From: Hadesarchaea archaeon
GTDB taxonomy: Archaea > Hadarchaeota > Hadarchaeia > Hadarchaeales > Hadarchaeaceae
NCBI GenBank assembly: GCA_004375695.1
Contig: SOKQ01000037.1
Coordinates: 1 to 44,178 of the forward strand
Direction: 5' to 3'
DNA: 44,178 nt
Shown here: positions 4,910 to 43,752 of the stretch, in pieces
Layout of the letters: every line of letters starts with the position of its first letter
How positions within the stretch are numbered: the first letter of the stretch is position 1
Made by a program: the position numbers and the translations under genes
Notes under the pieces: model-generated
Told to the model about the DNA's origin: nothing
Seen by the model: the letters and a program-made list of their open reading frames with translations, nothing else
Databases searched by the model: none

Positions 4910-5962
4910 TTACACCCGCTTCTTTTCTGGGAACCAATGTTGGGTTCGAAGGCATATCTTTACAAGGATGAGCATCACGGGCACTTCTATCAATACACCA
5001 ACTACAGTTGCAAGAGCGGCGCCCGATTCGATGCCAAAAAGCATTACCGCAACGGCGATTGCTACCTCAAAGTGATTGCTGGCCCCGATCTGTGCAGTCG
5101 GCGCCGCATCCTCGTATGGGAGGCCGACTCGTTTGGAAATACCATAGCCGATGCCGAATATAAGGAATACTTGAATCAACAACGGTAGCGCGATCATTCC
5201 GATGATCAGCGGTTGTGCGACGATTACATCCCCCTGCAGGCTGAAGAGCACAATCAATGTAATCAGCAGAGCGATAATTGCAACGTAATGCAGGTAGGGT
5301 GCAAAGTGTTTTTCAAACCAGTCATGCCCTTTCCTCTTGAGAATTTCTCTCCTCGAAAAATAACCTACTACCAGCGGAAGCCCGATGTAGATCCCGACGG
5401 AGAAGGCAATGGTCTCCCACGGCACGGGAATTCGCGCCACCCCCAGCAAGAATGCGCCGAGGGGAGCGTAAAGGAAAACCATTGTCAGTGAGTTGATGGC
5501 AGTCATCACTAACGTATGTCCCATATTTCCATTGGATAAATAGCCCCAGACCAATACCATGGCTGTACATGGGGCGACGCCGAGGAGTATCATGCCCGCT
5601 TGGTATTGTGAAGCCATCTCCGCGGATATAAACGGTGCCCAAATCATTTTCATAAAAACCCAAGCGAAGAATGCCATGGTGAAGGGCTTGATCACCCAGT
5701 TCACGAACAGAGTCACGCCGACCGGTTTTGGTGTTTTTCCTGCTTGGATTACTTTTCTGAAGTCAATCTGGACCATTATCGGATAAATCATGAAGAAAAG
5801 GCAAACTGCGATGGGAATCGAAACTTGGGCATACTGAATCTCGCTCAGAATCCTAGACAGCTCGGGAAGCAGCTTGCCGAGGATTATTCCAACAATTATG
5901 CAGAGGATGACCCAGATGGTCAGATATTTCTCGAAGAAGCCTAGGCGTCGCTGCTTAGCCAT
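4910..5962 (-). CDS. acr3: ACR3 family arsenite efflux permease
   Basis: 350 aa polytopic membrane protein. The N-terminus [23 protein letters not shown] is typical of ACR3, and it is linked to arsR. Confidence 0.9.
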
Positions 5963-5973
5963 TTTATCCCTTA

Positions 5974-5993
5974 ATATGAAAATAGATTCATAT
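5974..5993. promoter_or_regulatory. inverted repeat ATATGAA-N6-TTCATAT, candidate ArsR operator upstream of acr3-arsR
   Basis: The sequence atatgaa aataga ttcatat lies 12-31 nt upstream of the acr3 start at 5962. The same half-sites and spacing recur at 9475-9494. Confidence 0.45.
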
Positions 5994-6103
5994 ATAAAAA
6001 ACTAATGGTGCAATTTTTAAGATCTCATGGGTATGCATTCCTTCTTGCCAATGTTGTTCAGCTACCGCATCACCTCCGTTTTAGTTTGGATTCGTCCCCA
6101 ATT

Positions 6104-7450
6104 TTACCAGAGATTGATACCCCAAAATCTCATCATCATGATTAATCCAATAATGAGGATTATGATTCCAAATACTTTCTGCGTCCATTTGCCAGCGGAT
6201 ACATATTTATTTCCAAGTTTCCCACGTACGCTACTCGTAACGGTGCATAGTGGCACGATTGGTACTCCATGGCCTAAACCAAACACGAACAAGAGTGCCC
6301 CACCCATGAGAATGGAAATCTCCTGCGTGAGGACCAGGATAAAGACAGGCATCATCAAAGAAATGGCGCACGGTGCCCACCCTATGGCAAAAAGGATACC
6401 TAAAAAAAGAGCACCGAGATAAAGCGATTTTCCACTGATTTTTAGAAACATCTTCTGTCCTTTTTCCATAATTTGTGAACTTGGTTCTCTTTTTGATTTT
6501 ATTTTAAGTATCTCTTTTATTGGTTTGGAAACATTTATTCCGAGAACAATAAGAATAACTCCAGCTATGAGATAAAAAATGGCAGATGCTTCTATGAACA
6601 AACCAACCGATGAGATGAACATTCCAAAAACAAAAAACATCATCGACATCCCTAACGTGAAGAATATTCCAATCCAGAATCCTTGGCCTGTGAGATTCTT
6701 AGATTTATCCTCTGAATCTTTCTGCAGTGAGCCAACATAAGAGACCATTGCAACCAATAAAGCAATCGAACAAGGTGATAACGCGGTAAGGATGCCTAAT
6801 GCAAAAATACCTAAAAATGTTATACTACCTCCAGAAATCTCTCCTTTAAATCCCTGCCATCTCCCTTCCGCAATATCCTGAATATCCTGAGCTAATGATT
6901 CAGCGGTTTGTACATCATCAAGTTTCCCTTTTCCCATACAATATACATGATAGACACCCACCACGTTTTGATTGTCGTCAATTAAAACAAGTGTTGGATT
7001 GGAAAATGCACCGTTAACTGTCCAATAATCTTGATAGAGCTTTGCTATCGGATACGGGCTGAAGTCTTCAACCCAATGCCAACTTACATTTATCCCATAA
7101 TCATGCTCAGCAATACCCCTGCCGCTAATTGAATAGGGATTATTCCTAATGTTAACGGTTATAATTCTAACATTATCAACCGATTGAGCGAGATTTTTTA
7201 GTTCTACTAGCTGCTCTTTCATCTCCTCCTCACATTCAATACACAACGGTGATTCCAACCCTGTAAAATGAAGAATAATAACATATCCCTTATAATCACT
7301 CAATGAAAACTCAGCTCCATTTTCATCAACAGCTGTAAAATCAGGAGCAGGCGTTACTTCATACTGATTTCCCCCAACCAAGGGCGAAAAAAGAGATAAA
7401 ACAAAGACAGCAGGAATAATAAGAAATAGTATATGAAAAACTTTCTTCAT
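6104..7450 (-). CDS. fusion protein: TlpA/ResA-like extracytoplasmic thioredoxin domain plus CcdA/DsbD-type transmembrane thiol-disulfide transfer domain
   Basis: 448 aa. Has a signal/anchor helix and a thioredoxin CxxC (SPLCIEC). The polytopic C-terminal half carries the two conserved membrane Cys of CcdA (LSPCSIALL and WAPCAISL). Confidence 0.8.
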   Translation of the reverse strand: MKKVFHILFLIIPAVFVLSLFSPLVGGNQYEVTPAPDFTAVDENGAEFSLSDYKGYVIILHFTGLESPLCIECEEEMKEQLVELKNLAQSVDNVRIITVNIRNNPYSISGRGIAEHDYGINVSWHWVEDFSPYPIAKLYQDYWTVNGAFSNPTLVLIDDNQNVVGVYHVYCMGKGKLDDVQTAESLAQDIQDIAEGRWQGFKGEISGGSITFLGIFALGILTALSPCSIALLVAMVSYVGSLQKDSEDKSKNLTGQGFWIGIFFTLGMSMMFFVFGMFISSVGLFIEASAIFYLIAGVILIVLGINVSKPIKEILKIKSKREPSSQIMEKGQKMFLKISGKSLYLGALFLGILFAIGWAPCAISLMMPVFILVLTQEISILMGGALLFVFGLGHGVPIVPLCTVTSSVRGKLGNKYVSAGKWTQKVFGIIILIIGLIMMMRFWGINLW

Positions 7451-7451
7451 T

Positions 7452-8042
7452 TTACTCGCCGCTATTTATGTGATAATAGTAAATCGCATCTTTTATCCAT
7501 CCTTCCAAATCAGATTTGTCCATGTCCCCCTCCCAGCCATGCCAACAATATTCAGCACCGCCGTTGTTGTCGATTGAAGTGATAATGGCGGTCAAAGCGA
7601 TATAATGTGGAGAATCATCAGGATCATATGCGATCGCTTCATATCCTTTACTTTCAACATCTCCCCCAAGCTCCAAATCCAAATCATAAAATGTTAGACT
7701 ATCTTTGTATTTGTTTCCAAGTTCAATTACTCTATCTGCTTGGGGCTGGCACCAAGCGCAACCCGTACGATGTACTACCAGCAGAACACAACTATTTTTC
7801 AATGAATCCAATACCCACTGAGGATGACTAACAGGTTGACCACCCTGTGGATGACCCGGTGGATAAGTTACCCAGAAACCATCTGCTCCAGTGCCGAGAG
7901 AATGCAAAGGCGTATAACTTTCCAACCAAGATGAATTATTATCCACTCCAGGTGGGTTATTAGAAATAATAAACAGCGCTATGATAACAACAGAAAGAAC
8001 TGACGGCAACAGAACTTTCAGCAACAGAGATTTGGGATTCAT
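7452..8042 (-). CDS. membrane-anchored thioredoxin-fold protein (CAWC)
   Basis: Start chosen at internal ATG 8042 (MNPKSLLLKVLLPSVLSVVIIALFII anchor). Has a CxxC motif, RTGCAWCQP. Its stop is 1 nt from the start of the downstream CcdA fusion. Confidence 0.55.
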   Translation of the reverse strand: MNPKSLLLKVLLPSVLSVVIIALFIISNNPPGVDNNSSWLESYTPLHSLGTGADGFWVTYPPGHPQGGQPVSHPQWVLDSLKNSCVLLVVHRTGCAWCQPQADRVIELGNKYKDSLTFYDLDLELGGDVESKGYEAIAYDPDDSPHYIALTAIITSIDNNGGAEYCWHGWEGDMDKSDLEGWIKDAIYYYHINSGE

Positions 8043-8133
8043 TTTAACCCCCTTCACCACCAACATCGAGGGGCCTTCCTGCAAATGTTTTGCCTCCGCC
8101 ACTGTATCATCCCCTTTTGCTTATTGTGCCCCG

Positions 8134-8367
8134 CTACCTCAACCACTTTTCGACCTCCTCTCTAGTTGGGATTCTTCCCTCAGATTTCACACTGCCGTCT
8201 ATCACCACCGCAGGCGTTGCCATTACACCATATTCTATTATTTTACCAATATCTGTGATCTCTTTGACTTCCGCTTCCATCCCGAGCTCTTCTATGGTTT
8301 CCTTCACCCTTTTTTTGACAAACTGGCACTTTGGACATCCGGGACCCAATATTTCTACTTTTTTTAT
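8134..8367 (-). CDS. small thioredoxin-family protein (redox-active disulfide protein 2 type, CPKC)
   Basis: The track ORF starts at TTG 8349 (MGPGCPKC). The frame is open upstream and reads (ATA)KKVEILGPGCPKCQ, matching the usual MK.(I/V)EILG.GCPKC N-terminus. AGGAGGTG lies 5 nt upstream of the ATA at 8367. Confidence 0.7.
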   Translation of the reverse strand: MKKVEILGPGCPKCQFVKKRVKETIEELGMEAEVKEITDIGKIIEYGVMATPAVVIDGSVKSEGRIPTREEVEKWLR

Positions 8368-8381
8368 TCCAACACCTCCTT

Positions 8382-9458
8382 TTATCCAACCAGCATTCCG
8401 TAAATGATGCCAAGCATGGTTGAAAATATCACAACCAACGCTATGTAAACGCTAGTTTTTCTTGCGCCAATAGTCTTCCACACCAAAAGCATGTTTGGGA
8501 GACTCAAGGATGGTCCGGCAAGAAGCAGGGCCAACGCGGGACCTGCACCGATGATACCTTGGCTGTATCCAAAGAGGGTGCCGACTATGGGGACTTCAAG
8601 CAGCGTCGGCATGTACAGTATTGCCCCGATTATTGAGGCGATGAAGCAAGAAAAAATTAGATTTCCACCCAACACACCCTTTACTGCATCGTACGGCATG
8701 AAGTATCCTATCACCCCGGTTATGAAAACGCCGAGTAGCAGGATTGGTACAAGTCTTTTAGCCAACCACCACGTTTCATGTCCCCACGCGCTAACTTCAT
8801 CCCGCGAATAGTGGAACTTCACGATCGCTAATGTCGCAATTATCAACGCGCCGACGATTACAGCTTTTAAGGTCAGGGGGATGTACCCAGAGGCTGCGAT
8901 TAGCAATATAAGCACAAGGAATGCAAAGAAGCCAAAACTCACATACCAAGCCCTTCTTTTTGAATCCCCATTGGGGTTTGTTTCGATGGTTGATATGGGG
9001 ACAGAGGCCTCATTTTTTTCTTGTCTCCCAAACACAGCGCCCATAATCAACCCTATCACTATTGCCACCGATATCGCACCAACTGCTCTTGCAATCCCGA
9101 GGCCTATGCCGAGAACACTTGCCGTCAGAACTATAGCTAAAAGGTTGATTGCGGGCCCAGAGTATAGGAAGGTTGTTGCGGGTCCTATGCCGCCTCCTCT
9201 CTTGTAAATACCCGCGAACATGGGGAGCACAGTACAACTACAAACGGCCAGAATTGTACCAGAAATAGAAGCCACACCGTGTGAGACCCATTTCTTTACT
9301 TTACTGCCAAAGTATCTCAGTACCGTACCCTTTGAGATAACCGCCGCAATAGCACCTGCGATGAAAAAAGCCGGAACTAAACATGTCACCACGTGTGCTG
9401 AGAGGTACTCTCCAAGCTGCTCTAATCCAGCCCATAATGCTCCCACTAGACCATTCAT
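8382..9458 (-). CDS. permease, COG0701/ArsP-like family
   Basis: 358 aa polytopic protein with the characteristic CSC motif (LAVCSCTVLPMFAGIYKRGG). It pairs with a small thioredoxin gene, as is common for this family. Confidence 0.75.
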   Translation of the reverse strand: MNGLVGALWAGLEQLGEYLSAHVVTCLVPAFFIAGAIAAVISKGTVLRYFGSKVKKWVSHGVASISGTILAVCSCTVLPMFAGIYKRGGGIGPATTFLYSGPAINLLAIVLTASVLGIGLGIARAVGAISVAIVIGLIMGAVFGRQEKNEASVPISTIETNPNGDSKRRAWYVSFGFFAFLVLILLIAASGYIPLTLKAVIVGALIIATLAIVKFHYSRDEVSAWGHETWWLAKRLVPILLLGVFITGVIGYFMPYDAVKGVLGGNLIFSCFIASIIGAILYMPTLLEVPIVGTLFGYSQGIIGAGPALALLLAGPSLSLPNMLLVWKTIGARKTSVYIALVVIFSTMLGIIYGMLVG

Positions 9459-32787: not shown

Positions 32788-33213
32788 ATGTCGAACAGTG
32801 TGGCTGCTTCGGATGTGATTCGGTCGATGATGCGTTCTGGGTTCTCCCACGATGAAATCTACGATGTGCTCGCGGGCACAGGGTTGCCGGGCGAGCAGAT
32901 TCAGCTGCTCATCGACCGCGTGGCAGCGGAGTTTCAAGAGGCAAAGTTCGAGCCCCAGACTTCTCGATTGGGGGGCGAGGTCGAGAAGGTCTTCAGCGGG
33001 GCTTTTGAGGGACTACAGCACGATTTGTTTGAGCGCATCAATTCGGTTTCACGAAAGCTGGAGCTCGTGAGGGTGGAGCTCGAGAAGCTTGGTATGCGGG
33101 TAGTCGAGCTCCAAACCCTCGTTGAGCGAGGGCTGTTAAGTTCGGTTTCAGGTCTTGGTCGAAAGCGCCACCCGAGAGTTGACAGGGGCGTCAATTTAAT
33201 CAAGCCATTTTAG
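32788..33213 (+). CDS. hypothetical soluble coiled-coil protein
   Basis: 141 aa, acidic, with a heptad-like segment (LFERINSVSRKLELVRVELEKLGMRVVELQTLVERG). GGGGAG lies upstream of the ATG. Its 3' end converges on and overlaps the 33196 gene by 18 nt. Confidence 0.45.
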   Translation: MSNSVAASDVIRSMMRSGFSHDEIYDVLAGTGLPGEQIQLLIDRVAAEFQEAKFEPQTSRLGGEVEKVFSGAFEGLQHDLFERINSVSRKLELVRVELEKLGMRVVELQTLVERGLLSSVSGLGRKRHPRVDRGVNLIKPF

Positions 33214-35262
33214 AAGGCCATCAGATATGCTGAAGGGCTTCAAGCTGATGATCACAAGCCTGACGTTGAACATGTTGTTTGACACCTCGTGGCGGTACGC
33301 GAGCGGTTTATGAGCAATGAACTCCTCACCCATCGCTTCATGAGTCAGCGGCAGCGTTGGATTATCAAAGTCAAAGATCTCCTCGATGATTCCGTCTTCG
33401 AGCTCTAGAGTTATATCCCATTGAGCCCACCAGAGCGTCACCCCTATGAACCAGAGCGGGATCGGGGTGGGTGTAGGTAAGCCGAACCAGCCAGCAGGGT
33501 CCTCTCTACTGTATCGAACCTTCTTGATAGTGAAGTTATGAAACACGGAGAGCCCAGGTTGGGATTGGATTGGGGGTGGAGGCAGAAGTTCGTAGAGTTG
33601 CTCGCGGTCAATGCCAGAAAAATTCCCCGCATTCAGCTCAAGTTTTTGCCTGAGCGCCTCGTCAATATCTACGCTCATAATTTCATCGAGTGCTGGTTCG
33701 ACACTCCCAGAGAGCCTCTTCATTTCGTCGAGATTATTCCTTGCATTTTGTAGGATAATTTTGAGAGTGCCGATTGTGCCATCCCATTCACCATCTATGT
33801 ACACAGGAGTCATTTCTTCCACAGGGTCGGGTGGCTCCCCCTCATAGCTACCGGGCTCGGCGTAGCTGGTAAACCCGATCCAGTGCTTCGGAGCGGGTCC
33901 GGCGAGCAATTCTTGAACAGAGGAGGTAATTTCATCGAGTAAATTCATCATCGAGTTTTCGAGCCCAGCGACGGTGTTGTCGGCGCCTGCCTCTTGCGCA
34001 AAGCTGCTGATGTTTGTTTTGAGGTCGTTGAGTTTCGCCAAGGTGCCCTTGACTCCCCATGTGATCTGCTCCTGAGGCGATGGATAATCCTTCCTTATCC
34101 GCTCTACGAGGCTCTCGCGTAGCGCTCCCATCATCAAATTTTGACCCGCCGAGCGCATGGTGAAATTGATGAGTTGTTCAAAATGTTGGCCGACCTCCGA
34201 CACATGATTTCGAGCTTGGGTGACGCTTACAACGGCATCCCAAAGCGCTGTTTGCACGTTTTCGAGTGCTGAGTTAGCGTTGTCCGTGTTTTCATGGATT
34301 TGAGCGAGGGCATCGTTCGCACGTTGGGCATGCTCTTTCGCTCCCACTAGCGCGCTAGATGCTTGGGCGAGTGCTTCGAGCGCGCGGTCGATATATCCGC
34401 GCATTACATCAACATCAACGGCCTTCACGGGTGAGACGATCAAGCTGGTACTGGAAAGGTCAGAGAGGATATCTTCGCTTGTTTTGTTCACGGCAGTGGC
34501 TGCACTGGTCAGCCCGATCGCCGTCGCCGTATAGTCGGCCGAGCCAAAGATATCGAGCTCATGCGCTGCCCAGGCTAGTTCAAAGAACGCTTTACTACGC
34601 GAGACGTTTAGTTTGACGTTCCCACTCAACCACGCCCCGGCCCAAGCCGAAACGTACTCCATTACCGCCCAGTTTGTGCTTACGTTACCGATTCTGCTGA
34701 TGAATGCCCACATGCGCTCTTGGAGCAGGAAGTATCTGGAATCGATGAAGGTTTCGAGGTTCTCACAGGGTAGTTCGAGCACCAAGCTGTTGTCCCAGGA
34801 GCTAATCTTTACACGTGTCCCTTTTGGTAGCTTAACATCAGCCAATGTGTATCCGTCATCACCCTCTCGCAGATTGAAGGTTGACTGAGCGTTTGGATAT
34901 CCGAGTTCGAGTTCGATGCGTGCATCGTGGTTCGCGTATGCGTTTGGCAGCGCAGCGGCTCGCTTCGCGAAATATCTCGCCGCGAGATTTTTGATAGCCA
35001 GCTCCCTCGCCTCATCGCTAACATAACTGTCCGCGTCTTTGCTCACGGCCCAGAGAGCGTCGTAAACGGCGTATCGCGCTGCAGCTCGCAGGTCATTTTG
35101 AACGCTAGTGGCGATTGTCAGAAGTGCCGAGCTTGAGGCATCATCTACCGTGTTTAGCGAGCGCTGGTGTCTCAGTCCTACAGCCTGCCCCACCATTGCC
35201 ACGACGAGCATCACGATGGCAGCACCGACAACGCTGAAAGGTATAAATCCACGCTCTTTCAC
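33196..35262 (-). CDS. large prepilin-like (class III signal peptide-like) surface protein with central Ala/Asn/Gln-rich helical region
   Basis: Start preferred at GTG 35262, which forms a GTGA overlap with the upstream stop and gives MKERG|FIPFSVVGAAIVMLVVAMVG. The track start is 35271. Last gene of the six-gene operon. Confidence 0.6.
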   Translation of the reverse strand: MKERGFIPFSVVGAAIVMLVVAMVGQAVGLRHQRSLNTVDDASSSALLTIATSVQNDLRAAARYAVYDALWAVSKDADSYVSDEARELAIKNLAARYFAKRAAALPNAYANHDARIELELGYPNAQSTFNLREGDDGYTLADVKLPKGTRVKISSWDNSLVLELPCENLETFIDSRYFLLQERMWAFISRIGNVSTNWAVMEYVSAWAGAWLSGNVKLNVSRSKAFFELAWAAHELDIFGSADYTATAIGLTSAATAVNKTSEDILSDLSSTSLIVSPVKAVDVDVMRGYIDRALEALAQASSALVGAKEHAQRANDALAQIHENTDNANSALENVQTALWDAVVSVTQARNHVSEVGQHFEQLINFTMRSAGQNLMMGALRESLVERIRKDYPSPQEQITWGVKGTLAKLNDLKTNISSFAQEAGADNTVAGLENSMMNLLDEITSSVQELLAGPAPKHWIGFTSYAEPGSYEGEPPDPVEEMTPVYIDGEWDGTIGTLKIILQNARNNLDEMKRLSGSVEPALDEIMSVDIDEALRQKLELNAGNFSGIDREQLYELLPPPPIQSQPGLSVFHNFTIKKVRYSREDPAGWFGLPTPTPIPLWFIGVTLWWAQWDITLELEDGIIEEIFDFDNPTLPLTHEAMGEEFIAHKPLAYRHEVSNNMFNVRLVIISLKPFSISDGLLKWLD

Positions 35263-35930
35263 GAAGACCACAGTTCCAAGGTTATCTCGACGGCGATGTC
35301 GGGTTCGAGTTCTAAAGTGGTGTCAAGCACTTTCTGAATTCGTTGGGTTAGCTCCTCCTGCGAGATGGGCAGGGTTGCAACAATTGTTTCTGAGCAAAGC
35401 TTCCGTTGCGCACCCTCGTCGAAATTTTTGATCTCGCTCTCGAAGTGAACCCGGACAAAGCCGAGATCCAATGGCAAAGTTCTCACGATCAGGCGATATC
35501 CGAAACGTCCACCGATGAGCTTATCGAGCACCTTCTTCAGAAATTCTCGAAGCTCGCTTTTCATGCCCCAACTTGGCCCGGGTGGTTCAAGCCCAACTCC
35601 TTCAGCTTCGATGTGCAAGTTGAAAAGCGCATCCTCAACCAAAAGTTGTGTGAGAGCTTTATGGCGCAGGTTACGTTTGGTCGACCCTTTGAGTACAGGT
35701 ACGTTTGGTTCAAAACTGAGGGTGTCGAGTTGATATTCAAATCCGCCGAACTCATCCGCGGTCGAGTGTTGAAGCGCCAGTAAAGTGCTCTGCGCGAAGC
35801 TCGCGGCGTATCGAGTACTTTCAATTTTAGGATCGATGGGGCTTGCCCCGACCAAAAGTAAACTGGCGAACGAAATCAAGAGCGCAAAGACCAACATGTC
35901 TGCTATGTAACCAATGCCTTGTTTGTCCAT
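35259..35930 (-). CDS. prepilin-like (class III signal peptide-like) protein
   Basis: 223 aa. N-terminus MDKQG|IGYIADMLVFALLISFASLLLVG. Starts 1 nt after the upstream stop. Confidence 0.55.
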   Translation of the reverse strand: MDKQGIGYIADMLVFALLISFASLLLVGASPIDPKIESTRYAASFAQSTLLALQHSTADEFGGFEYQLDTLSFEPNVPVLKGSTKRNLRHKALTQLLVEDALFNLHIEAEGVGLEPPGPSWGMKSELREFLKKVLDKLIGGRFGYRLIVRTLPLDLGFVRVHFESEIKNFDEGAQRKLCSETIVATLPISQEELTQRIQKVLDTTLELEPDIAVEITLELWSS

Positions 35931-35931
35931 T

Positions 35932-36366
35932 TTATCTCCTCCACACCCACACGACTAACTCACAGAGCTGCGCCGACCCTTGGCCGCGCGTGACTGCCAC
36001 CGGTAGGCTGATTGAACAAGGTGGCGAGAAATATCCCCCAAGCTGGTTTTGCTCGGGGCCGTACGCTAGCAACACCTCGCCCCCAAGAGTTCTAACCTCG
36101 GCTCGCAGCTCGATGCCCTCTCGAGCAAGCAGTTTGGAGTAGTCCTCAAGCTTTTTCATCGTTAAATCAATCGACCCGGGTGAAGCGGCCAACACACGAT
36201 TTTTGATGTCCTCGGCGATGTTCAGCGCTAGGTCGAAGCTCTCGTAGGCGTTCTTCCTCTCCGCGTAGATGGAGTAAGAGTGCACGAGCGCCGCAATGAA
36301 AAGGCAGAGTAGACCGACGACCGCGAGCGTCGCGAATAGATCCTCGCCGACTGAGAGTTGCTCCAT
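35932..36366 (-). CDS. prepilin-like / N-terminally anchored protein
   Basis: 144 aa. N-terminus MEQLSVG|EDLFATLAVVGLLCLFIAALV. Its start directly abuts the upstream stop (36367). Confidence 0.5.
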   Translation of the reverse strand: MEQLSVGEDLFATLAVVGLLCLFIAALVHSYSIYAERKNAYESFDLALNIAEDIKNRVLAASPGSIDLTMKKLEDYSKLLAREGIELRAEVRTLGGEVLLAYGPEQNQLGGYFSPPCSISLPVAVTRGQGSAQLCELVVWVWRR

Positions 36367-36792
36367 CTAAATCAATTCCAATCGAACCCCGCCCGTTTTG
36401 CTCAGGCATATCGCGCTCGGGCTCTCGCGACTGATCGAAAACTCTCCACCGTTGACTTCGTGGTCGAGCATCAGGGTACGCTCGACTCGCTCCTGCGACT
36501 CCACGATTACACGAATTACTTGTATTCCTTGGTTGAGTTCACCGATGATTGTTACCTTGGTTTGATGCGCGATGGTTGGCAGCGTCCTCCTCAGCTCAAC
36601 CTTGCCGGGCATGCTCTCAGCGGCTCGAATCGCCCCTGCAATCGTGTCGGCGAGCGTCGCTAGGTCTTCTCTCTCCGCAGTGCGCTTGAACCCCAAGGAC
36701 ATCGTGAGCACAGCGCCAAACAAAGCCAGTGCAACAAGTGCGACGCCGATCTTGCAGGCGAAAAAGTCGGCCAGCACCCCGCGTTCATTTAT
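36367..36792 (-). CDS. prepilin-like protein; start uncertain (ATA 36792 or GTG 36777)
   Basis: The track ORF extends to 36933 but would overlap the upstream gene by 149 nt. An ATA start gives (M)NERG|VLADFFACKIGVALVALALFGAVL, which matches the leader pattern of its five neighbours. Confidence 0.5.
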   Translation of the reverse strand: MNERGVLADFFACKIGVALVALALFGAVLTMSLGFKRTAEREDLATLADTIAGAIRAAESMPGKVELRRTLPTIAHQTKVTIIGELNQGIQVIRVIVESQERVERTLMLDHEVNGGEFSISRESPSAICLSKTGGVRLELI

Positions 36793-37207
36793 GCGAAAGC
36801 CCCCGTACTTCCAGAAAATATCCGTCTTCGCTATCACGGAGTTCGATCGTGTAGCTCCCGGCACCGATTTCGAAGCCCCCGCCGTCCAGCACAACTGAGA
36901 GCGGTAGAATCTCGCTTCGCAGTATTTCCTCACCGTAAGTTAGCTGCACGAGGTTCATATCGACGACGAGCTTGCCCCCGTTCAGCCCGAGCTCGATCTG
37001 CCGTATGCTGCCGATGCCACCAGCGCTGGCCATGCGAGCCTGCTCAACGAATGAGTTGAAGCTCTCGATCGCGTGCTGTCGTTCACCAAGCCTTTGTGCT
37101 CGGTCAAGGCAAGCGGTGCCGATCGCCAGCGTAGATGCAGCTAGCACGGCACCGAGTAGCAGCACTACCGGCAGGGACTCGACGCCCTTAGCGTTGCGTC
37201 GCGTCAT
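36785..37207 (-). CDS. prepilin-like (class III signal peptide-like) protein
   Basis: 140 aa. N-terminus MTRRNAKG|VESLPVVLLLGAVLAASTLAIG. Confidence 0.55.
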   Translation of the reverse strand: MTRRNAKGVESLPVVLLLGAVLAASTLAIGTACLDRAQRLGERQHAIESFNSFVEQARMASAGGIGSIRQIELGLNGGKLVVDMNLVQLTYGEEILRSEILPLSVVLDGGGFEIGAGSYTIELRDSEDGYFLEVRGLSHK

Positions 37208-37212
37208 GCTTA

Positions 37213-37599
37213 CTACCTTGTTCTATGAACTGCAGCTTCCCCTTCCCACGGGATGTAGCCGCTATGCGTTACGCGCACTGTTACTACGGTGTACGATTTT
37301 GCTTCCATGGGTATGGTGAAGGTGTACTGGTTCGAGTTCGTCCCTAGCGTGTGGGCTTTCATACCCCCAAGATACTTTACCACGACGGTCGCCCCTCCTA
37401 GGGCATCGCCGCTCGCGGCGTCATACACCCGGACGGTCAGTCGATTGCTCGAAGTGCTAAAGGTCACTTTCATGTCTTTGAACACCGTTCGTTCGGCCGT
37501 GCCCACGAACTGCGTCAGCACGCCCATCGCCATGGTTCCGATCACTAGCGCCATCACCAGCTTTATCGGCACTCCCATGAGCTGTCCTTTCTCTTCCAT
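37213..37599 (-). CDS. prepilin-like protein with C-terminal beta-sandwich (carboxypeptidase-regulatory-like) domain
   Basis: Start placed at ATG 37599 (MEEKGQ|LMGVPIKLVMALVIGTMAMGVL). The C-terminus LTVRVYDAASGDALGGATVVVK...YTFTIP...VRVTHSGYIPWEGE resembles CarboxypepD_reg-type Ig folds. First gene of the operon. Confidence 0.55.
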   Translation of the reverse strand: MEEKGQLMGVPIKLVMALVIGTMAMGVLTQFVGTAERTVFKDMKVTFSTSSNRLTVRVYDAASGDALGGATVVVKYLGGMKAHTLGTNSNQYTFTIPMEAKSYTVVTVRVTHSGYIPWEGEAAVHRTR

Positions 37600-37629
37600 C
37601 TCTCCCGCCGAGGCTTTGGGTGAAGGTTG

Positions 37630-37637
37630 TTTATAAA
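37630..37637 (-). promoter_or_regulatory. TATA-like box (TTTATAAA) for the prepilin-like operon
   Basis: Lies 31-38 nt upstream of ATG 37599, inside the TTG-extended version of the track ORF. Confidence 0.35.
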
Positions 37638-37709
37638 GACGCAAATTTTAACCATGGACGCCCAGCCGACAATCGTTTATGGGCGCGCGGTTATTTTGAA
37701 GCGAATAAT

Positions 37710-37979
37710 ATGTCGGGGACCTACTACGTTTACCTTCTGAAGAGCCTGAAGGACGAAAAGTTTTACACGGGGCAGACCACCGACCTCAAAAATCGTCTTG
37801 CGCAGCACAATCGCGGCAGGGTGCGTTCGACCACGGCAAGACGACCATTCAAACTCGTCTACTGGGAGTCTCTCGAAACGCGCAGCGCCGCAATGAAACG
37901 TGAGCGCAGGTTGAAATCACTCAAACACGCTGATAAACTGAAGCTGGTTAAAGTGTTCGAACGAGGCAAAATAGGTTAG
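37710..37979 (+). CDS. stand-alone GIY-YIG nuclease-domain protein (UPF0213/YhbQ-like)
   Basis: Start placed at ATG 37710. YYVYLLKS...FYTGQTTDLKNRLAQHN matches the GIY-(10-11)-YIG core followed by the conserved R and E. Confidence 0.8.
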   Translation: MSGTYYVYLLKSLKDEKFYTGQTTDLKNRLAQHNRGRVRSTTARRPFKLVYWESLETRSAAMKRERRLKSLKHADKLKLVKVFERGKIG

Positions 37980-38021
37980 ACATATTTTTTAATCTCCAAA
38001 GTAATCTAATCTGGGGTTGAG

Positions 38022-38522
38022 TTGGGAGAAAGAGCTCTAAGTTGGGGCCTAAGACTTCTAGGGATAGCTCTGTTTGTAGGCCCATTTATTGCAGCATTTG
38101 CAGTTCACAATTGGGATCTTAAGGCGACGGTGATGCCCAGCCAAGAGGAAATGGATGAGATAACGGAAACGATTAGTGGGCTGTTTGGTGAGGGGTTCTC
38201 AGAAGACACGTTTACAATCGGAACCCCAACATCTTCCGGCAACACGATTAGGATACCGGTAAGGCTCACATCCCCCCTCAATCTGCCAATTAAGATCACA
38301 GATCTCTCCCTTACTATGTCCGACCAAGGCGTAGAAGTGGCTCAAGTGGAGATGGAGGAGACAGAGGTAGAGATTCCCGCCAATGGAACGGTGGATTTTA
38401 CATTAATTGGGCCGTACACGGGAACACTCCCAACTGATCCACAGCCCACCGACGTGAACATAACATTTGAGGCGTACGGCGTAACTTTACAGATGCAGGT
38501 GGGGCAGGGTGGGGAGGTTTAG
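38022..38522 (+). CDS. N-terminally anchored protein with beta-rich ectodomain (weak LEA14/LEA_2-like pattern)
   Basis: 166 aa with one N-terminal transmembrane helix (LRLLGIALFVGPFIAAFAV) followed by alternating beta-type sequence. Family call is tentative. Confidence 0.45.
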   Translation: MGERALSWGLRLLGIALFVGPFIAAFAVHNWDLKATVMPSQEEMDEITETISGLFGEGFSEDTFTIGTPTSSGNTIRIPVRLTSPLNLPIKITDLSLTMSDQGVEVAQVEMEETEVEIPANGTVDFTLIGPYTGTLPTDPQPTDVNITFEAYGVTLQMQVGQGGEV

Positions 38523-38523
38523 G

Positions 38524-39153
38524 ATGGAAACTAGCCCCCCTGAGACCAGCAGGCCAAAGAGGCGCTTACCGCCGATGAACTGGTTTGGCTTGGTCGCGGG
38601 CGCGTTGATGCTGTTACTACCGTTTCTCGGCCCGTGGTGGCGCGCCACGGTCGGGACCGGGGCGATGGACATTGCGCTCTCCCCCTTCGACTACAGCATA
38701 AGTTTGTTGGGGCAGTCAATTTCGTCGACATTGGTAGGATACTTCCTCTTGGCGGCTAAACTCTCGGTCATAATTGGTGGGGTGCTGATGATCGCCGGCT
38801 CCGTGGGGCCCAAGCGATGGTGGGGAAGGCGCTTGGTTCGGTTCGGGGCGATGAAGGTGTTTTGGATGGTCATCGGGTTAATAGCGTTGTTGCTGTTAGG
38901 GGCTTTTTTCCTGGAAAGCATCTTGCCAAACCTGATGTCGGGAATGGTTGAGGGTGGGACGATGCAGTTTAACGTCCCCTATGTGGAAGGGGTCGCGACA
39001 TCGACGATCCAGATGGGGGACGCAGCCACGATTACCGCGCCGATAACAGCATCGCTCACCGAGATTTTCTGGGTGGCAATATTGGTGGCGGCTCTCGGGA
39101 TTGCGGCGAGGATTTACCACCGAAGGTTAGTGAAGCCGGAGAAACCCAAATAA
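38524..39153 (+). CDS. hypothetical polytopic membrane protein
   Basis: Start placed at ATG 38524, 1 nt after the upstream TAG, with GGGGAGGT upstream. About 5 hydrophobic helices and no recognised motif. Confidence 0.45.
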   Translation: METSPPETSRPKRRLPPMNWFGLVAGALMLLLPFLGPWWRATVGTGAMDIALSPFDYSISLLGQSISSTLVGYFLLAAKLSVIIGGVLMIAGSVGPKRWWGRRLVRFGAMKVFWMVIGLIALLLLGAFFLESILPNLMSGMVEGGTMQFNVPYVEGVATSTIQMGDAATITAPITASLTEIFWVAILVAALGIAARIYHRRLVKPEKPK

Positions 39154-39210: not shown

Positions 39211-40284
39211 TTAGTTGCCAAGTTTCTTGATTCTTGGGAAATTCCTAATCCCGGATAACATCAGGATTCCCATTACTCCGCTCCTCGCCAGTTTCCCGGT
39301 CCACCGGATTGGGAGATCTCCCGCTCTCAACCTCGCATTTGGCATGGCTTTTGTGATCCATTGCTTGCTCCTCTCAATTCCCGATCTGGGCAGCTCTTCT
39401 GAAGGGCCGACTAGCAGGGACAAAACGTTTTTCACATTTTTCATGTCGCATTGGGCAGTGGTCCTTGCAGATGCGTTGATGATAGCCATCTCGCACCTGG
39501 TCGTGATATCGAGCCTGTCGATCGATGTTTTCTTCCTGAAGATAGACAGGAACCTTCTCGGAGCTCTTACCTCTGACCATCCAAGCACGGAAAAGCCGTC
39601 TAGTGTCGCCATGATGTCTGAAGCGTCAACCACCTTAATGCCGACCTTCTTTCCCGTGGTTTCTCCTGCCTGCAACAAAAATGGAAAAGCCCTCGCGAGT
39701 TCGTAATTCATCATTTGATAACTTTTCTTTAAGGATACTCCATCCGTGCTCCAGATTTCATTGTCGAATAAGATTATGCCGTCGGTCACTTTTTTCAACT
39801 CGTTGATAGTTCGTGCTGCATTAGCCTCCATCAATTTCCCCTCGGCCTTGCTCGGCAGGACTCCGATGACGTGCACCGGCAGCTCGTAGGTGTCTGCGAG
39901 TTCCTCGGCCAGAGCTGGTGCGCTGCCCGATCCAGTTCCACCCCCTAGTCCGATTGCGATCAAAAACGAATCGAGGTGGTAAGTTTCTTCCGTCCCGATC
40001 TCCCGCTTGACCGAACTCAATTCCTGCTTTATTATCCGTTTACTAACATTTCGCTTCAGCCCGACCCCGTGACCTCTCGCTGTCGTTTGGCCTATGAGGA
40101 TCCTGTTTTTTTTCGGCACTCTTTTCAACCCCATTAGGTCAGACTTAGCCGTATTAATCGCAAAAGAAAACGGGACCACTTTTTCTGAGACTTTTACATT
40201 TTTCTCAACACTTTCTAAAAGCGAATCTGTTATCCGCCCTCCAGCTTGTCCGATTCCAATAATGCCTACCCTCATTGACTTCAC
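39211..40284 (-). CDS. tubulin/FtsZ superfamily GTPase, CetZ-like
   Basis: 357 aa. N-terminus GIIGIGQAGGRITD and the tubulin-type signature GLGGGTGSGSAP (GGGTGSG rather than the FtsZ GGGTGTG). Also has LPSKAEG...NAAR and ILFDNE segments, as in CetZ. Confidence 0.75.
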   Translation of the reverse strand: MKSMRVGIIGIGQAGGRITDSLLESVEKNVKVSEKVVPFSFAINTAKSDLMGLKRVPKKNRILIGQTTARGHGVGLKRNVSKRIIKQELSSVKREIGTEETYHLDSFLIAIGLGGGTGSGSAPALAEELADTYELPVHVIGVLPSKAEGKLMEANAARTINELKKVTDGIILFDNEIWSTDGVSLKKSYQMMNYELARAFPFLLQAGETTGKKVGIKVVDASDIMATLDGFSVLGWSEVRAPRRFLSIFRKKTSIDRLDITTRCEMAIINASARTTAQCDMKNVKNVLSLLVGPSEELPRSGIERSKQWITKAMPNARLRAGDLPIRWTGKLARSGVMGILMLSGIRNFPRIKKLGN

Positions 40285-40999: not shown

Positions 41000-41260
41000 G
41001 TGTATACCGTGGTGCATGTCAGGCTAAGGACGATTAAAGGCAACAAGTACCTTTACCTCTACGCGTCCGAGCGCATCGGCGGCAGGCCCAAGTCCAAATA
41101 CATCGCCTACTTGGGTCGGGTGGGATCGAACGCGGTGAAAAGGCTGCCGAGGAAGTACAAGTCCAGCGAGCTAGTGGAGCAGGTCAGGGCGCTCGAGTTC
41201 GACACGAGACTGGACGAGATACTCAGAGACTGGCACGACATACTGGTGAGGCTCGGATGA
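41000..41260 (+). CDS. small basic protein, candidate antitoxin/regulator partner of the Doc-like protein
   Basis: 86 aa with a GTG start. The N-terminal beta-hairpin-like KGNKYLYLYASERIGGRPKSKYIAYLGRV is followed by a helical acidic C-terminus. Its stop overlaps the next ATG (ATGA). Confidence 0.5.
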   Translation: MYTVVHVRLRTIKGNKYLYLYASERIGGRPKSKYIAYLGRVGSNAVKRLPRKYKSSELVEQVRALEFDTRLDEILRDWHDILVRLG

Positions 41261-41721
41261 AGTCCATATCCGACCGCCTGAAGGTGGAGGAAATACTCAA
41301 TATCAACCAAAAGCTTGCCAGACACGACGTTCCATACACAGGCTCTGAGGATTATCCCGTTAGAAGGGAAAAGGTGGAACGCTTGGTCAAGAACGTCCCG
41401 GCCCAGAGCCCGATTAGTGTTGCGGCATACTACCTCAAGAACCTAACCCTCCTGCAGCCGTTTCCAGATGCCAACCATCGGACTGGACTAATCGCGGCGC
41501 GGATGTATTTGGAACGAAAGGGGTATCGCTTTGACTTTACGGAGGATGAGGCAGAACAGCTGAGGGATCAGATGCTGAACCTGCAGTTCAAGCTCTATGG
41601 CACCTACGAGGAGCTGTCAGAAGTTGTAACCACAGAACCCGACAACGAGATCTTCCGCCTGTGCCGCGATTGCATAAAAAAACACGCAATGCGAGCCCGT
41701 CCTAAGACTCGACCGAAGTAA
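41257..41721 (+). CDS. Fic/Doc-family protein with a degenerate active-site motif
   Basis: 154 aa. The core LLQPFPDANHRTGLIAARMYLERKGY aligns to the Doc motif HxFx(D/N)(A/G)NKR, but the catalytic His position is Gln (CAG, 41455-41457). Confidence 0.65.
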   Translation: MKSISDRLKVEEILNINQKLARHDVPYTGSEDYPVRREKVERLVKNVPAQSPISVAAYYLKNLTLLQPFPDANHRTGLIAARMYLERKGYRFDFTEDEAEQLRDQMLNLQFKLYGTYEELSEVVTTEPDNEIFRLCRDCIKKHAMRARPKTRPK

Positions 41722-41886: not shown

Positions 41887-41960
41887 TGCGGCCGGCGGGA
41901 TTCGAACCCGCGCTACAGGCTTGGAGGGCCTGAGTCCTGACCAGGCTGGACCACGGCCGC
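41887..41960 (-). tRNA. tRNA, most likely tRNA-Gly(UCC); no encoded CCA
   Basis: Hand-folded cloverleaf of 74 nt: acceptor GCGGCCG/CGGCCGC, D arm GUCC-AGCCUGGUCA-GGAC, anticodon arm CAGGC-CCUCCAA-GCCUG, variable UAGC, T arm GCGGG-UUCGAAU-CCCGC, discriminator A. Followed by a T5 run. Confidence 0.8.
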
Positions 41961-42008: not shown

Positions 42009-42995
42009 ATGCGAGCGATTGTTACAAATGGCCTAACCCGAGAATTCAATGGTTTAACCGCGGTCGACCATGTAGATCTCCAGATAGAAAAAGGCGAGCT
42101 CTTTGGTCTCCTCGGTCCTAACGGTGCGGGGAAGACGACTCTCATTCACATGCTCTGCACGATTCTCCCACCAACGGAGGGCACGGCGAAGGTCGCGGGC
42201 TTTGGTATAGGCAAAAAACCAGATTCGGTTCGGGCGTCGATAGGGATAGTATTCCAAGACCCTTCCCTTGACAACCGCCTCACTGGTAAGGAAAACCTAG
42301 ATTTCCACGGGCGGGTTTACGGGATGAGTAAAACTCTGAGGGAGAAGCGGATCGACGAAGTTTTGAAGTTAGTTGGGTTAGAGGACCGTGCGAATGCTTT
42401 GGTTCAAACTTACTCGAGTGGGATGAGGCGAAGGCTTGAGATAGCTAGGAGTTTCATGCATCACCCGAAAATAATGTTCTTGGACGAGCCCACCCTCGGG
42501 CTAGACCCCCAGACGCGCAGGAAGATTTGGGAACACATCCAGATGCTTAACAAGCAGGAGAAGATCACGATCTTGCTCACGACGCACTACATGGATGAAG
42601 CCGATTATCTCTGCGACCGCGTGGGCATCATCGATCACGGTAGAATCATAGTGTTGGACAAGCCCAAGAAGCTCAAGGATCAGCTCGAAGGCGACATCGT
42701 CTCCCTTGAAGTTCCTCAGCCGAAAAAGTACGCTGATGTCTTTCGAGAGAGGAAGTACGTGAAAGAGGTGAAAATAGTAGGGGATTATTTGTATCTCACG
42801 GTCACGGGCGGCGAGAAGGCTGTCCCAAAGCTGATAGATATCGTCGCGAGGCATGGGGGCAAGGTGCGCTCAGTTGGATGCAGGAGCCCGACGCTGGAAG
42901 ATGTTTTCATTCGCTATACAGGCAGGGGCATCCGCGAAGAGGAAGGCGGGATAAAGGAGCAAATGCGAGCGCATATGAGAGCCCACATGAGGTGA
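42009..42995 (+). CDS. ABC transporter ATP-binding protein (ABC-2 / DrrA-like)
   Basis: 328 aa. Has Walker A GPNGAGKTT, the signature YSSGMRRRL and Walker B IMFLDEPTLGLD. Confidence 0.9.
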   Translation: MRAIVTNGLTREFNGLTAVDHVDLQIEKGELFGLLGPNGAGKTTLIHMLCTILPPTEGTAKVAGFGIGKKPDSVRASIGIVFQDPSLDNRLTGKENLDFHGRVYGMSKTLREKRIDEVLKLVGLEDRANALVQTYSSGMRRRLEIARSFMHHPKIMFLDEPTLGLDPQTRRKIWEHIQMLNKQEKITILLTTHYMDEADYLCDRVGIIDHGRIIVLDKPKKLKDQLEGDIVSLEVPQPKKYADVFRERKYVKEVKIVGDYLYLTVTGGEKAVPKLIDIVARHGGKVRSVGCRSPTLEDVFIRYTGRGIREEEGGIKEQMRAHMRAHMR

Positions 42996-42999
42996 TGAG

Positions 43000-43752
43000 A
43001 TGAGTGCTCAAGCGATCTATGTGCTCTGGCTCCGCGACATGAAGTGGTTCCTACGGGCCAAAGCTAGGATAATATCCACAATCGTGATGCCTTTCTTATG
43101 GCTCGCGATTCTCGGGATGGGTTTAGGCGCAGTCACCCAAATTCCAGGTGTCGGGAACTACATCGATTTTTTGGCCCCAGGAATTGTGGCGATGGCGATT
43201 CTTTTCAACGCGACGATGTCTGGGGTTTCGGTGTTATGGGATAAGCAGTTCGGGTTCATGAAGGAGATTCTCGTAGCCCCAGTTTCGCGGATATCCATCA
43301 TGCTCGGCAAGACATTTGGAGGGACAACGACCTCGATCATTCAAGGGGTAATGTTGCTTTTAGTCGCGGGATTGATCGGGGCGAAAATGCCTGGGCCCGC
43401 TGGGTTTCTCTTGGCTTTACTTTTCATGATTGTTCTCGCCATCGGTTTCGTCGGTTTGGGTCTAGCGATTGCTTCGAGAATAGAAGATCCAGTCGCGTTC
43501 CCGCTCGTGATAAATTTCCTCATCATGCCACTCTTTTTCCTGTCAGGGGCAATTTTCCCAATAAGTATGGCGCCTGAGTGGCTGAGGTCAATCTCCTACA
43601 TCAATCCGGTGACGTATGGGGTCGACGGCTTGCGGGGGGTCATCATTGGGGTATCTGAGTTTCCGATATGGCTTGACTTAGGCATTTTAGCGATTTTCTC
43701 GTTGGCCATGGTTCTATTGGGCGCATATTTGTTCAAAAAGATGTCAGCTTGA
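43000..43752 (+). CDS. ABC-2 type transporter permease
   Basis: 250 aa with 6 predicted transmembrane helices. Begins 4 nt after the ATPase stop. The N-terminus LWLRDMKWFLRAKARIIS is typical of ABC-2 permeases. Confidence 0.85.
   Translation: MSAQAIYVLWLRDMKWFLRAKARIISTIVMPFLWLAILGMGLGAVTQIPGVGNYIDFLAPGIVAMAILFNATMSGVSVLWDKQFGFMKEILVAPVSRISIMLGKTFGGTTTSIIQGVMLLLVAGLIGAKMPGPAGFLLALLFMIVLAIGFVGLGLAIASRIEDPVAFPLVINFLIMPLFFLSGAIFPISMAPEWLRSISYINPVTYGVDGLRGVIIGVSEFPIWLDLGILAIFSLAMVLLGAYLFKKMSA

Follow-up and report, generated by a model that had tools for sequence, protein, structure and literature searches.

The window analysed here, the whole 44,178-nucleotide stretch of contig SOKQ01000037.1 from the Hadesarchaea archaeon assembly GCA_004375695.1, carries on its minus strand at 33196-37599 six co-directional, tightly packed open reading frames (ORFs), G1 to G6, whose products share a prepilin-like N-terminal layout. 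Gene starts were chosen by orthologue support. G1 (37213-37599, 128 amino acids) begins at an ATG and has the N-terminus MEEKG↓QLMGVPIKL, where the arrow marks the end of the Gly-terminated leader and the residues after the Gly are QLMGVPIKLVMALVIG. It is followed by G2 (36785-37207, 140 amino acids, MTRRNAKG↓VESLPVVLLLG), G3 (36367-36792, 141 amino acids, (I/M)NERG↓VLADFFACKIG), G4 (35932-36366, 144 amino acids, MEQLSVG↓EDLF), G5 (35259-35930, 223 amino acids, MDKQG↓IGYIAD, with IGYIADMLVFALLIS after the Gly) and G6 (33196-35262, 688 amino acids, GTG start, MKERG↓FIPFS). From G1 to G6 the junctions between successive genes measure +5, -8, 0, +1 and -4 nucleotides, and the first-pass annotation of this DNA, which had described six minus-strand genes joined at -8 to +5 nucleotides, agrees with these values and with the presence of all six ORFs.

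Each of the six proteins opens with a leader of 5-8 residues that ends in Gly and runs into the only hydrophobic segment of the protein, which on the Kyte-Doolittle scale lies directly after the Gly and begins at residues 3-8. To describe these N-termini across the phylum we counted residues in 111 distinct orthologue sequences over the six families, with leader conservation seen in orthologues of about 20 Hadarchaeota loci. Position -1, the last residue of the leader, is Gly in 108/111 sequences and Ala in 3/111, and no other residue occurs there. Lys or Arg occupies position -2 in 13/14 G1, 14/18 G2, 13/18 G3, 12/20 G5 and 17/22 G6 sequences. The G1 family combines Gly or Ala at -1 with an invariant Gln at +1 (14/14) and Val at +5 (14/14); G2 has Gly at -1 in 18/18 and Glu at +2 in 17/18; G3 has Gly at -1 and Phe at +5 in 18/18 each and Asp or Glu at +4 in 13/18; and G6 has an invariant Phe at +1. 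Acidic residues are conserved at +2 in G2, +4 in G3, +1/+2 in G4 and +6 in G5, Glu at +5 is found in none of the six families, and the +1 residue of G2 to G6 is V, L, E, I or F, never Gln. Divergent relatives of G6 retain the short Gly-ended leader in 14 of the 14 inspected, followed by F, L, Y or S. In the G1 orthologues of two loci (L017 and L018) Thr stands in place of the internal Met; translation must there include the upstream Met and with it the leader.

Processing of all prepilins requires Gly, Ala or Ser at -1, and in archaea it depends critically on a charged residue at -2 (PMC4371748). Two elements of a FlaFind-type prediction are present throughout the Hadarchaeota proteins: a permitted residue (Gly or Ala) at -1 ahead of a hydrophobic domain in 111/111 sequences, and a short leader with a single hydrophobic domain (H-domain) of about 20 residues in all six families. 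Substrates of the peptidase EppA carry Gln at +1, and the EpdD site is listed as KGQL in Table 1 of the same review (PMC4371748); the G1 site KG↓QL is identical to this Methanococcus maripaludis EpdD site. A crude FlaFind-like rule of our own missed G1, G3 and G5, flagged internal starts of polytopic proteins and was not used. Comparison of all pairs of the six families with hhalign gave no probability above 34% and no similarity beyond the N-terminus; paralogy among G1 to G6 was rejected on this ground, which leaves six distinct families. Because the families are dissimilar beyond the N-terminus, the motif they share points to a common constraint of processing or assembly and not to paralogy. 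These data support a class III, prepilin-like N-terminal architecture kept by each of the six families throughout the phylum, and the class III leaders described in the first-pass annotation are borne out by residue -1 of the orthologues, by leader length and by the single hydrophobic segment.

The block is also conserved as a unit. A search for the six genes in related genomes, which had been proposed on first inspection of the sequence, found G1 to G6 in identical order at every Hadarchaeota locus of sufficient length, and this order is kept down to 33% G6 identity, including at loci with different flanks. At two such loci, L030 on a metagenome contig and L032 on an NCBI contig, the block is intact, the G6 variants are about 750 amino acids long, and the upstream flank carries Pelota/eRF1 instead of the GIY-YIG nuclease gene found at the window locus; in another case (P0085) the G6 variant has 607 amino acids and the contig stops just upstream of G6, so that G6 and the genes downstream of it are the part visible. 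G1 is the most conserved of the six, with orthologues 65-98% identical. We searched 1.84e9 cluster representatives exhaustively with a HMMER profile of G6 and recovered 69 clusters at E<1e-10; weaker matches are few, confined to the helical region of the protein and attributable to coiled-coil noise. All G6 homologues with a source name are Candidatus Hadarchaeota or Hadesarchaea, 23 of the 24 GTDB loci from the profile search carry the label Hadarchaeota or Hadesarchaea, the other (L026) is labelled 'Methanobacteriota archaeon' only, and one named divergent member of the family comes from Hadarchaeales. Because no more than 69 clusters among the 1.84e9 representatives reach this threshold, the G6 family is lineage-specific at the sequence level. 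At this level the other families are Hadarchaeota-specific too, G5 excepted; in the G5 homologue search the named sequences are all from Hadarchaeota and the remainder are unassigned metagenome proteins.

An archaeal TATA-box-like element, TTTATAAA, lies upstream of G1 at 37630-37637 on the minus strand and ends 30 nucleotides before the G1 ATG. Together with the next ~30 nucleotides (ccacccaaagcctcggcgggaRaR) it is conserved at the nucleotide level in most of 16 loci, among them some with G6 only 40-50% identical, with a looser fit in the loci that diverge most (L024, L025, L030 and L032). The element probably acts as the promoter of the operon, and the conserved nucleotides that separate it from the G1 ATG may serve as an operator or belong to a 5′ leader; Rfam returned only a tRNA in the window and nothing in the region at 37600-37640. 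Within the operon, the start codon position of G3 (36790-36792, minus strand) reads ATA, so that the gene is without a canonical start in the window; ATA is also found in L001, L004 and L006, and ATG, GTG or TTG in the other loci. The start codon of G4 is ACG in L001 and L020. These odd start positions (36790-36792 on the minus strand of the window, 8471-8473 and 8897-8899 in L001, and 1262-1264 in L020) sit at, or directly after, the stop codon of the upstream gene. The ATA and ACG starts of G3 and G4 suggest non-canonical initiation or a coupling of termination and reinitiation.

The mature parts of the proteins were compared with Pfam, NCBIfam and predicted structures. G1 aligns with CarboxypepD_reg at 22.4 bits against a cut-off of 32.3 (E 1.6e-4; E 2.2e-3 for the L012 orthologue); the CarboxypepD_reg-like beta-sandwich assigned to it on first reading thus has a match behind it, at a score below the cut-off. 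G2 has no Pfam or NCBIfam match. G5 appears to be a divergent member of the Pfam family DUF7284 (PF23955), by a borderline hit: the window protein scores 15.9 bits against a cut-off of 27, the orthologues in L012 and L014 score 31.4 and 29.0 bits, and 18 G5 homologues carry a precomputed PF23955 hit, with the match spanning positions 2-126 of the 278 in the profile, its N-terminal half only. Below the same cut-off of 27, G4 matches DUF7285 at 13.5 bits in the window (E 0.12) and 15.5 bits in L012 (E 0.028), with an alignment that reaches over at least the C-terminal two thirds of the profile, and G6 matches DUF7286 at 8.9 and 11 bits over the first 30-65 positions. Domain homology between G6 and DUF7286 was rejected, since these hits are limited to the signal and transmembrane (TM) region and the profile search gave the 69 clusters and coiled-coil noise. 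That three adjacent genes should match three consecutively numbered families, DUF7284 to DUF7286, by chance nonetheless appears unlikely. The search for haloarchaeal DUF7284 relatives by tblastn against plasmids returned none, an alignment-based homologue search for such relatives returned one protein only, and DUF7284, DUF7285 and DUF7286 are unmentioned in the literature searched.

Structure prediction with AlphaFold2 (AF2) gave a G5 model with a predicted local distance difference test score (pLDDT) of 79.3 and a predicted template modelling score (pTM) of 0.70, whose N-terminal helix is long and kinked (residues 5-29 and 34-55) and precedes an alpha/beta domain with a beta sheet. The G6 model (pLDDT 69.8) consists of an N-terminal helix, a beta region at 116-174, long helical hairpins at 281-453 and a conserved C-terminal beta domain, and the hairpins, modelled at high pLDDT, correspond to the long helical segment that had been noticed in the last gene from its translation.

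Operons of this general kind have a precedent. Makarova et al. 2016 (PMC4858521, Fig. 4B and Table S4) described six-gene 'clade_2' pilin operons in Archaeoglobales, composed of arCOG06117, arCOG04652, arCOG07777 or arCOG06552, arCOG03926 and arCOG02911 twice. The Archaeoglobus profundus operon encodes proteins of 135, 171, 159, 130, 217 and 422 amino acids and adjoins genes for TadC and an ATPase, and the A. fulgidus operon AF0751-0756 stands alone between the genes for TFE and ribosomal proteins (PMC4858521). The Hadarchaeota block resembles these Euryarchaeal clade 2 sets (System 2, PilB4-type) in having six co-directional genes, each with one N-terminal TM segment or class III signal, and in the succession of four small proteins followed by larger ones (128, 140, 141, 144, 223 and 688 amino acids), a likeness judged by architecture and sizes against Table S4 of PMC4858521 and not by arCOG sequences. 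System 2 loci are further described as encoding multiple pilins, some without class III signal peptide (SPIII) motifs, together with large adhesin-like proteins (2026 preprint). The two groups differ in that A. fulgidus and A. veneficus place the large protein fourth, whereas G6 comes last; in a convergent coiled-coil gene, D1, which adjoins the Hadarchaeota block and is not described for those loci; and in the helical and beta architecture of G6 and the five other families, detectable only in Hadarchaeota. The multi-pilin operon is therefore a kind already known, of which the Hadarchaeota block is a lineage-specific version; what is new here is the lineage-specific set of families, the G6 fold and the conserved neighbour D1. 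The suggestion in the first-pass annotation that this may be an undescribed family is not supported, given the operons of Makarova et al. 2016 and the G5 orthologues that pass the DUF7284 cut-off, by which Pfam already includes one or more of the six families.

Other filament systems offer partial parallels. Like the Hadarchaeota block, the Epd pili of M. maripaludis (EpdA-E, EppA, EpdJKL) use several pilin-like genes per system, and G1 shares with them the EpdD site KG↓QL and the invariant +1 Gln that is the hallmark of EppA substrates. A further likeness is that some pilins of the Epd system are encoded at separate loci (2026 preprint). Unlike the Epd proteins, G1 is without Glu at +5, G2 to G6 are without Gln at +1, none matches Class_IIIsignal, and the Hadarchaeota locus contains no EppA, ATPase or platform gene. 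In Haloferax volcanii the PilA1-6 genes are likewise unlinked to the PilB3/PilC3 operon, which serves them in trans; they are, however, dispersed paralogues with a common H-domain and N-termini of DUF1628/Pilin_N type, whereas the Hadarchaeota set consists of six unrelated families in one operon without a Pilin_N match. In bacteria, the type II secretion system (T2SS) pseudopilins GspG-K and the type IV pilus (T4P) minor pilins FimU-PilVWXE with PilY1 are laid out in operons whose products form tip or priming complexes, and these serve as an analogy for how the Hadarchaeota set might work: one major-like subunit, small minor subunits and one large protein, all with prepilin leaders. The bacterial motif with Glu5, whether as G↓F(T/S)LxE or as G↓F/M-x-x-x-E, is missing from the Hadarchaeota proteins, whose leaders are of archaeal type, and no sequence or fold similarity to bacterial pseudopilins or minor pilins was found in Pfam or in the Foldseek comparisons of G5 and G6.

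We looked for the machinery that such subunits would require. Pfam places the main ORFs of the 44 kb window in the metabolism of arginine and sulfur and among transporters, with a P-type ATPase, CetZ and an ABC transporter, and recognises no T2SSE, T2SSF or Peptidase_A24-type gene. Eight other loci that were fetched show no recognisable gene for a PilB-like ATPase, TadC or peptidase in flanks annotated with Pfam, and no machinery gene appeared in the 10 kb beyond each end of the window, reached through matching contigs of GCA_009619155.1 (349 kb) and of a JGI metagenome. A pattern scan for a PilB-type Walker A motif across about 419 kb found none; the single hit of the scan is a 238-amino-acid ORF with an ABC-transporter-type P-loop, not a PilB. 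For the other GTDB loci the flanks were covered by the Walker A pattern only, so that the negative there extends to PilB-type ATPases and not to TadC or peptidase. The earlier statement that no Walker A motif lies within 5 kb of the operon has to be amended, because the gene for an ABC transporter ATPase at 42009-42995 on the plus strand contains GPNGAGKTT (an ABC-2 permease gene follows at 43000-43752); its other part, that no PilB- or TadC-like gene is recognisable, stands. Makarova et al. 2016 (PMC4858521) infer that archaeal ATPase/TadC modules work with pilin genes in trans, and since archaea commonly encode pilins at a distance from the machinery, its absence in cis says little.

The gene structure, the class III-like N-termini, the conservation of the operon and the absence of recognisable machinery from the examined sequence are observations, and we interpret them, with a probability of about 0.6, as the signature of an operon for the subunit set of a Hadarchaeota-specific surface structure resembling type IV filaments, which would be a pilus or else a short pseudopilus. 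Leader cleavage, filament formation, the roles of the subunits and machinery acting in trans are predicted parts of this interpretation, reasoned by analogy. Each product would be inserted into the membrane by Sec through its N-terminal hydrophobic helix, a class III signal peptidase of PibD/FlaK/EppA type would remove the leader of 5-8 residues by cutting behind the conserved Gly, and the N-terminal helices would then pack as the core of the filament. Assembly would call on genes in trans for a PilB/TadA-like ATPase and for a TadC-like platform, an arrangement like that of Haloferax PilA with PilB3/C3 and of the stand-alone six-pilin operon of A. fulgidus. G1, which is small, encoded first, most conserved and predicted to contain a beta-sandwich domain, is the candidate major subunit; G2 to G5 would be minor subunits; and G6, with its large extracellular part, is a candidate for a large tip or adhesin-like subunit. 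Since G4 is without a basic residue at -2 it may remain uncleaved, perhaps as a membrane-anchored base component.

Several observations weigh against a type IV filament. Position -2 of G4 is V, I or A in 19/19 sequences and Lys or Arg in 0/19, which makes it the sole family of the six without a basic -2 residue. No Pfam or NCBIfam pilin or archaellin model matches G1 to G6; Pilin_N (PF07790), Class_IIIsignal (PF04021) and Arch_flagellin (PF01917) give no hit to the six window proteins at a threshold as loose as E<=1, and none of them matches the orthologues. Foldseek comparison of the G5 and G6 models with the PDB gave no match at E<1e-3, and so no solved pilin; the best hits, helical-bundle toxins and ribosomal protein S3, reach E values of only ~0.04-0.1 and were dismissed, and PDB sequence searches with G1, G5 and G6 profiles returned noise only. 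The proposed link to the pilin sets of Archaeoglobus and haloarchaea is drawn from architecture and one borderline Pfam hit. No PilB, TadC or peptidase gene was seen in the sequence examined, and the presence of such genes elsewhere in Hadarchaeota genomes is a prediction.

Much of this would also suit ordinary bitopic, signal-anchored proteins that keep their leaders and build an envelope complex other than a filament, such as an S-layer anchor or surface scaffold, with the conserved Gly simply marking the start of the membrane helix. Such proteins would account for the missing pilin family match, the G5 and G6 folds that match no pilin, the machinery not recognisable in the examined sequence and the missing -2 charge of G4, and the membrane proteins M1 and M2 are often encoded divergently beside the block. 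A plain anchor, however, would not require six unrelated families throughout a phylum to keep Gly or Ala strictly at a set distance of 5-8 residues from their start. That the families are alike at the N-terminus only argues instead for a common constraint of processing or assembly, and the KG↓Q of G1 is an EppA-type processing site. We regard the uncleaved-anchor explanation as unlikely.

Doubtful to a greater degree is a self-sufficient structure new to Hadarchaeota, in which the lineage would be without PilB and TadC altogether and the block together with D1, perhaps assisted by M1 and M2, would build a novel, ATPase-independent envelope structure, with G6 as a new fold class. An ATPase in cis was seen at none of the examined loci, D1 stays linked to the block despite differing flanks, and the confinement of the G6 family to the lineage (69 clusters) fits such a structure as well. 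Against this stand the common separation of archaeal pilins from their machinery, which makes absence in cis uninformative, the lack of a recognisable enzymatic domain in D1 and the absence of M1 and M2 from several loci. No type IV filament is known to assemble without an ATPase and a platform protein. Should Hadarchaeota genomes truly lack the machinery, the finding would be far more interesting.

Hadarchaeota are uncultured subsurface archaea with small genomes. The literature searched contains nothing on their cell surface and nothing usable on their pili or archaella. Under the preferred interpretation as a type IV filament-like structure, the operon probably encodes the main predicted surface appendage of Hadarchaeota and offers an entry point to how these cells attach or interact. 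It would also extend to a deep-branching lineage the view that the pilin sets of archaea have an evolution and mobility of their own, uncoupled from the ATPase/TadC module. Because five of the six families are without a Pfam or NCBIfam model, the alignments assembled here could seed annotation models.

Among the neighbouring genes, D1 (32788-33213, plus strand) encodes a soluble coiled-coil protein of 141 amino acids and is convergent with the 3′ end of G6, which it overlaps. D1 adjoins G6 in nearly all loci that reach past G6; in L030 and L032 it is still present, with an extra gene for a protein of 138-146 amino acids between D1 and G6. It belongs to no Pfam or NCBIfam family and is a possible cytoplasmic partner of the operon products, its membership of the system being uncertain. 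On the other side of the operon, the plus strand within 37620-39153 carries the divergent GIY-YIG nuclease gene and the genes for M1 (38022-38522) and M2 (38509-39153), likewise divergent from the operon. M1 and M2, neither of which matches a known family, lie upstream of the block in many Hadarchaeota loci, not in all; some of the loci that have them lack the GIY-YIG gene. A genuine CetZ gene with Tubulin and CetZ_C domains follows at 39211-40284 on the minus strand. It had been noted as a neighbour of the operon, with no link claimed; CetZ lies next to the block only in the lineage of the window (the window and L034) and not at other loci, so that a functional link is unsupported and was rejected.

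Further along the window, two small overlapping genes at 41000-41721 on the plus strand may form a toxin-antitoxin-like module, given the Fic/DOC domain (E 7.5e-6) of the second, and a tRNA gene lies just downstream of it at 41887-41960 on the minus strand. Near the opposite end, the region at ~5000-9000 has a GC content of 0.40-0.44 compared with about 0.53 elsewhere and a negative GC skew; with its genes of SBF/ACR3-like, thioredoxin/DsbD-like and ArsP-permease type, it is possibly an acquired islet of metal or arsenic resistance.

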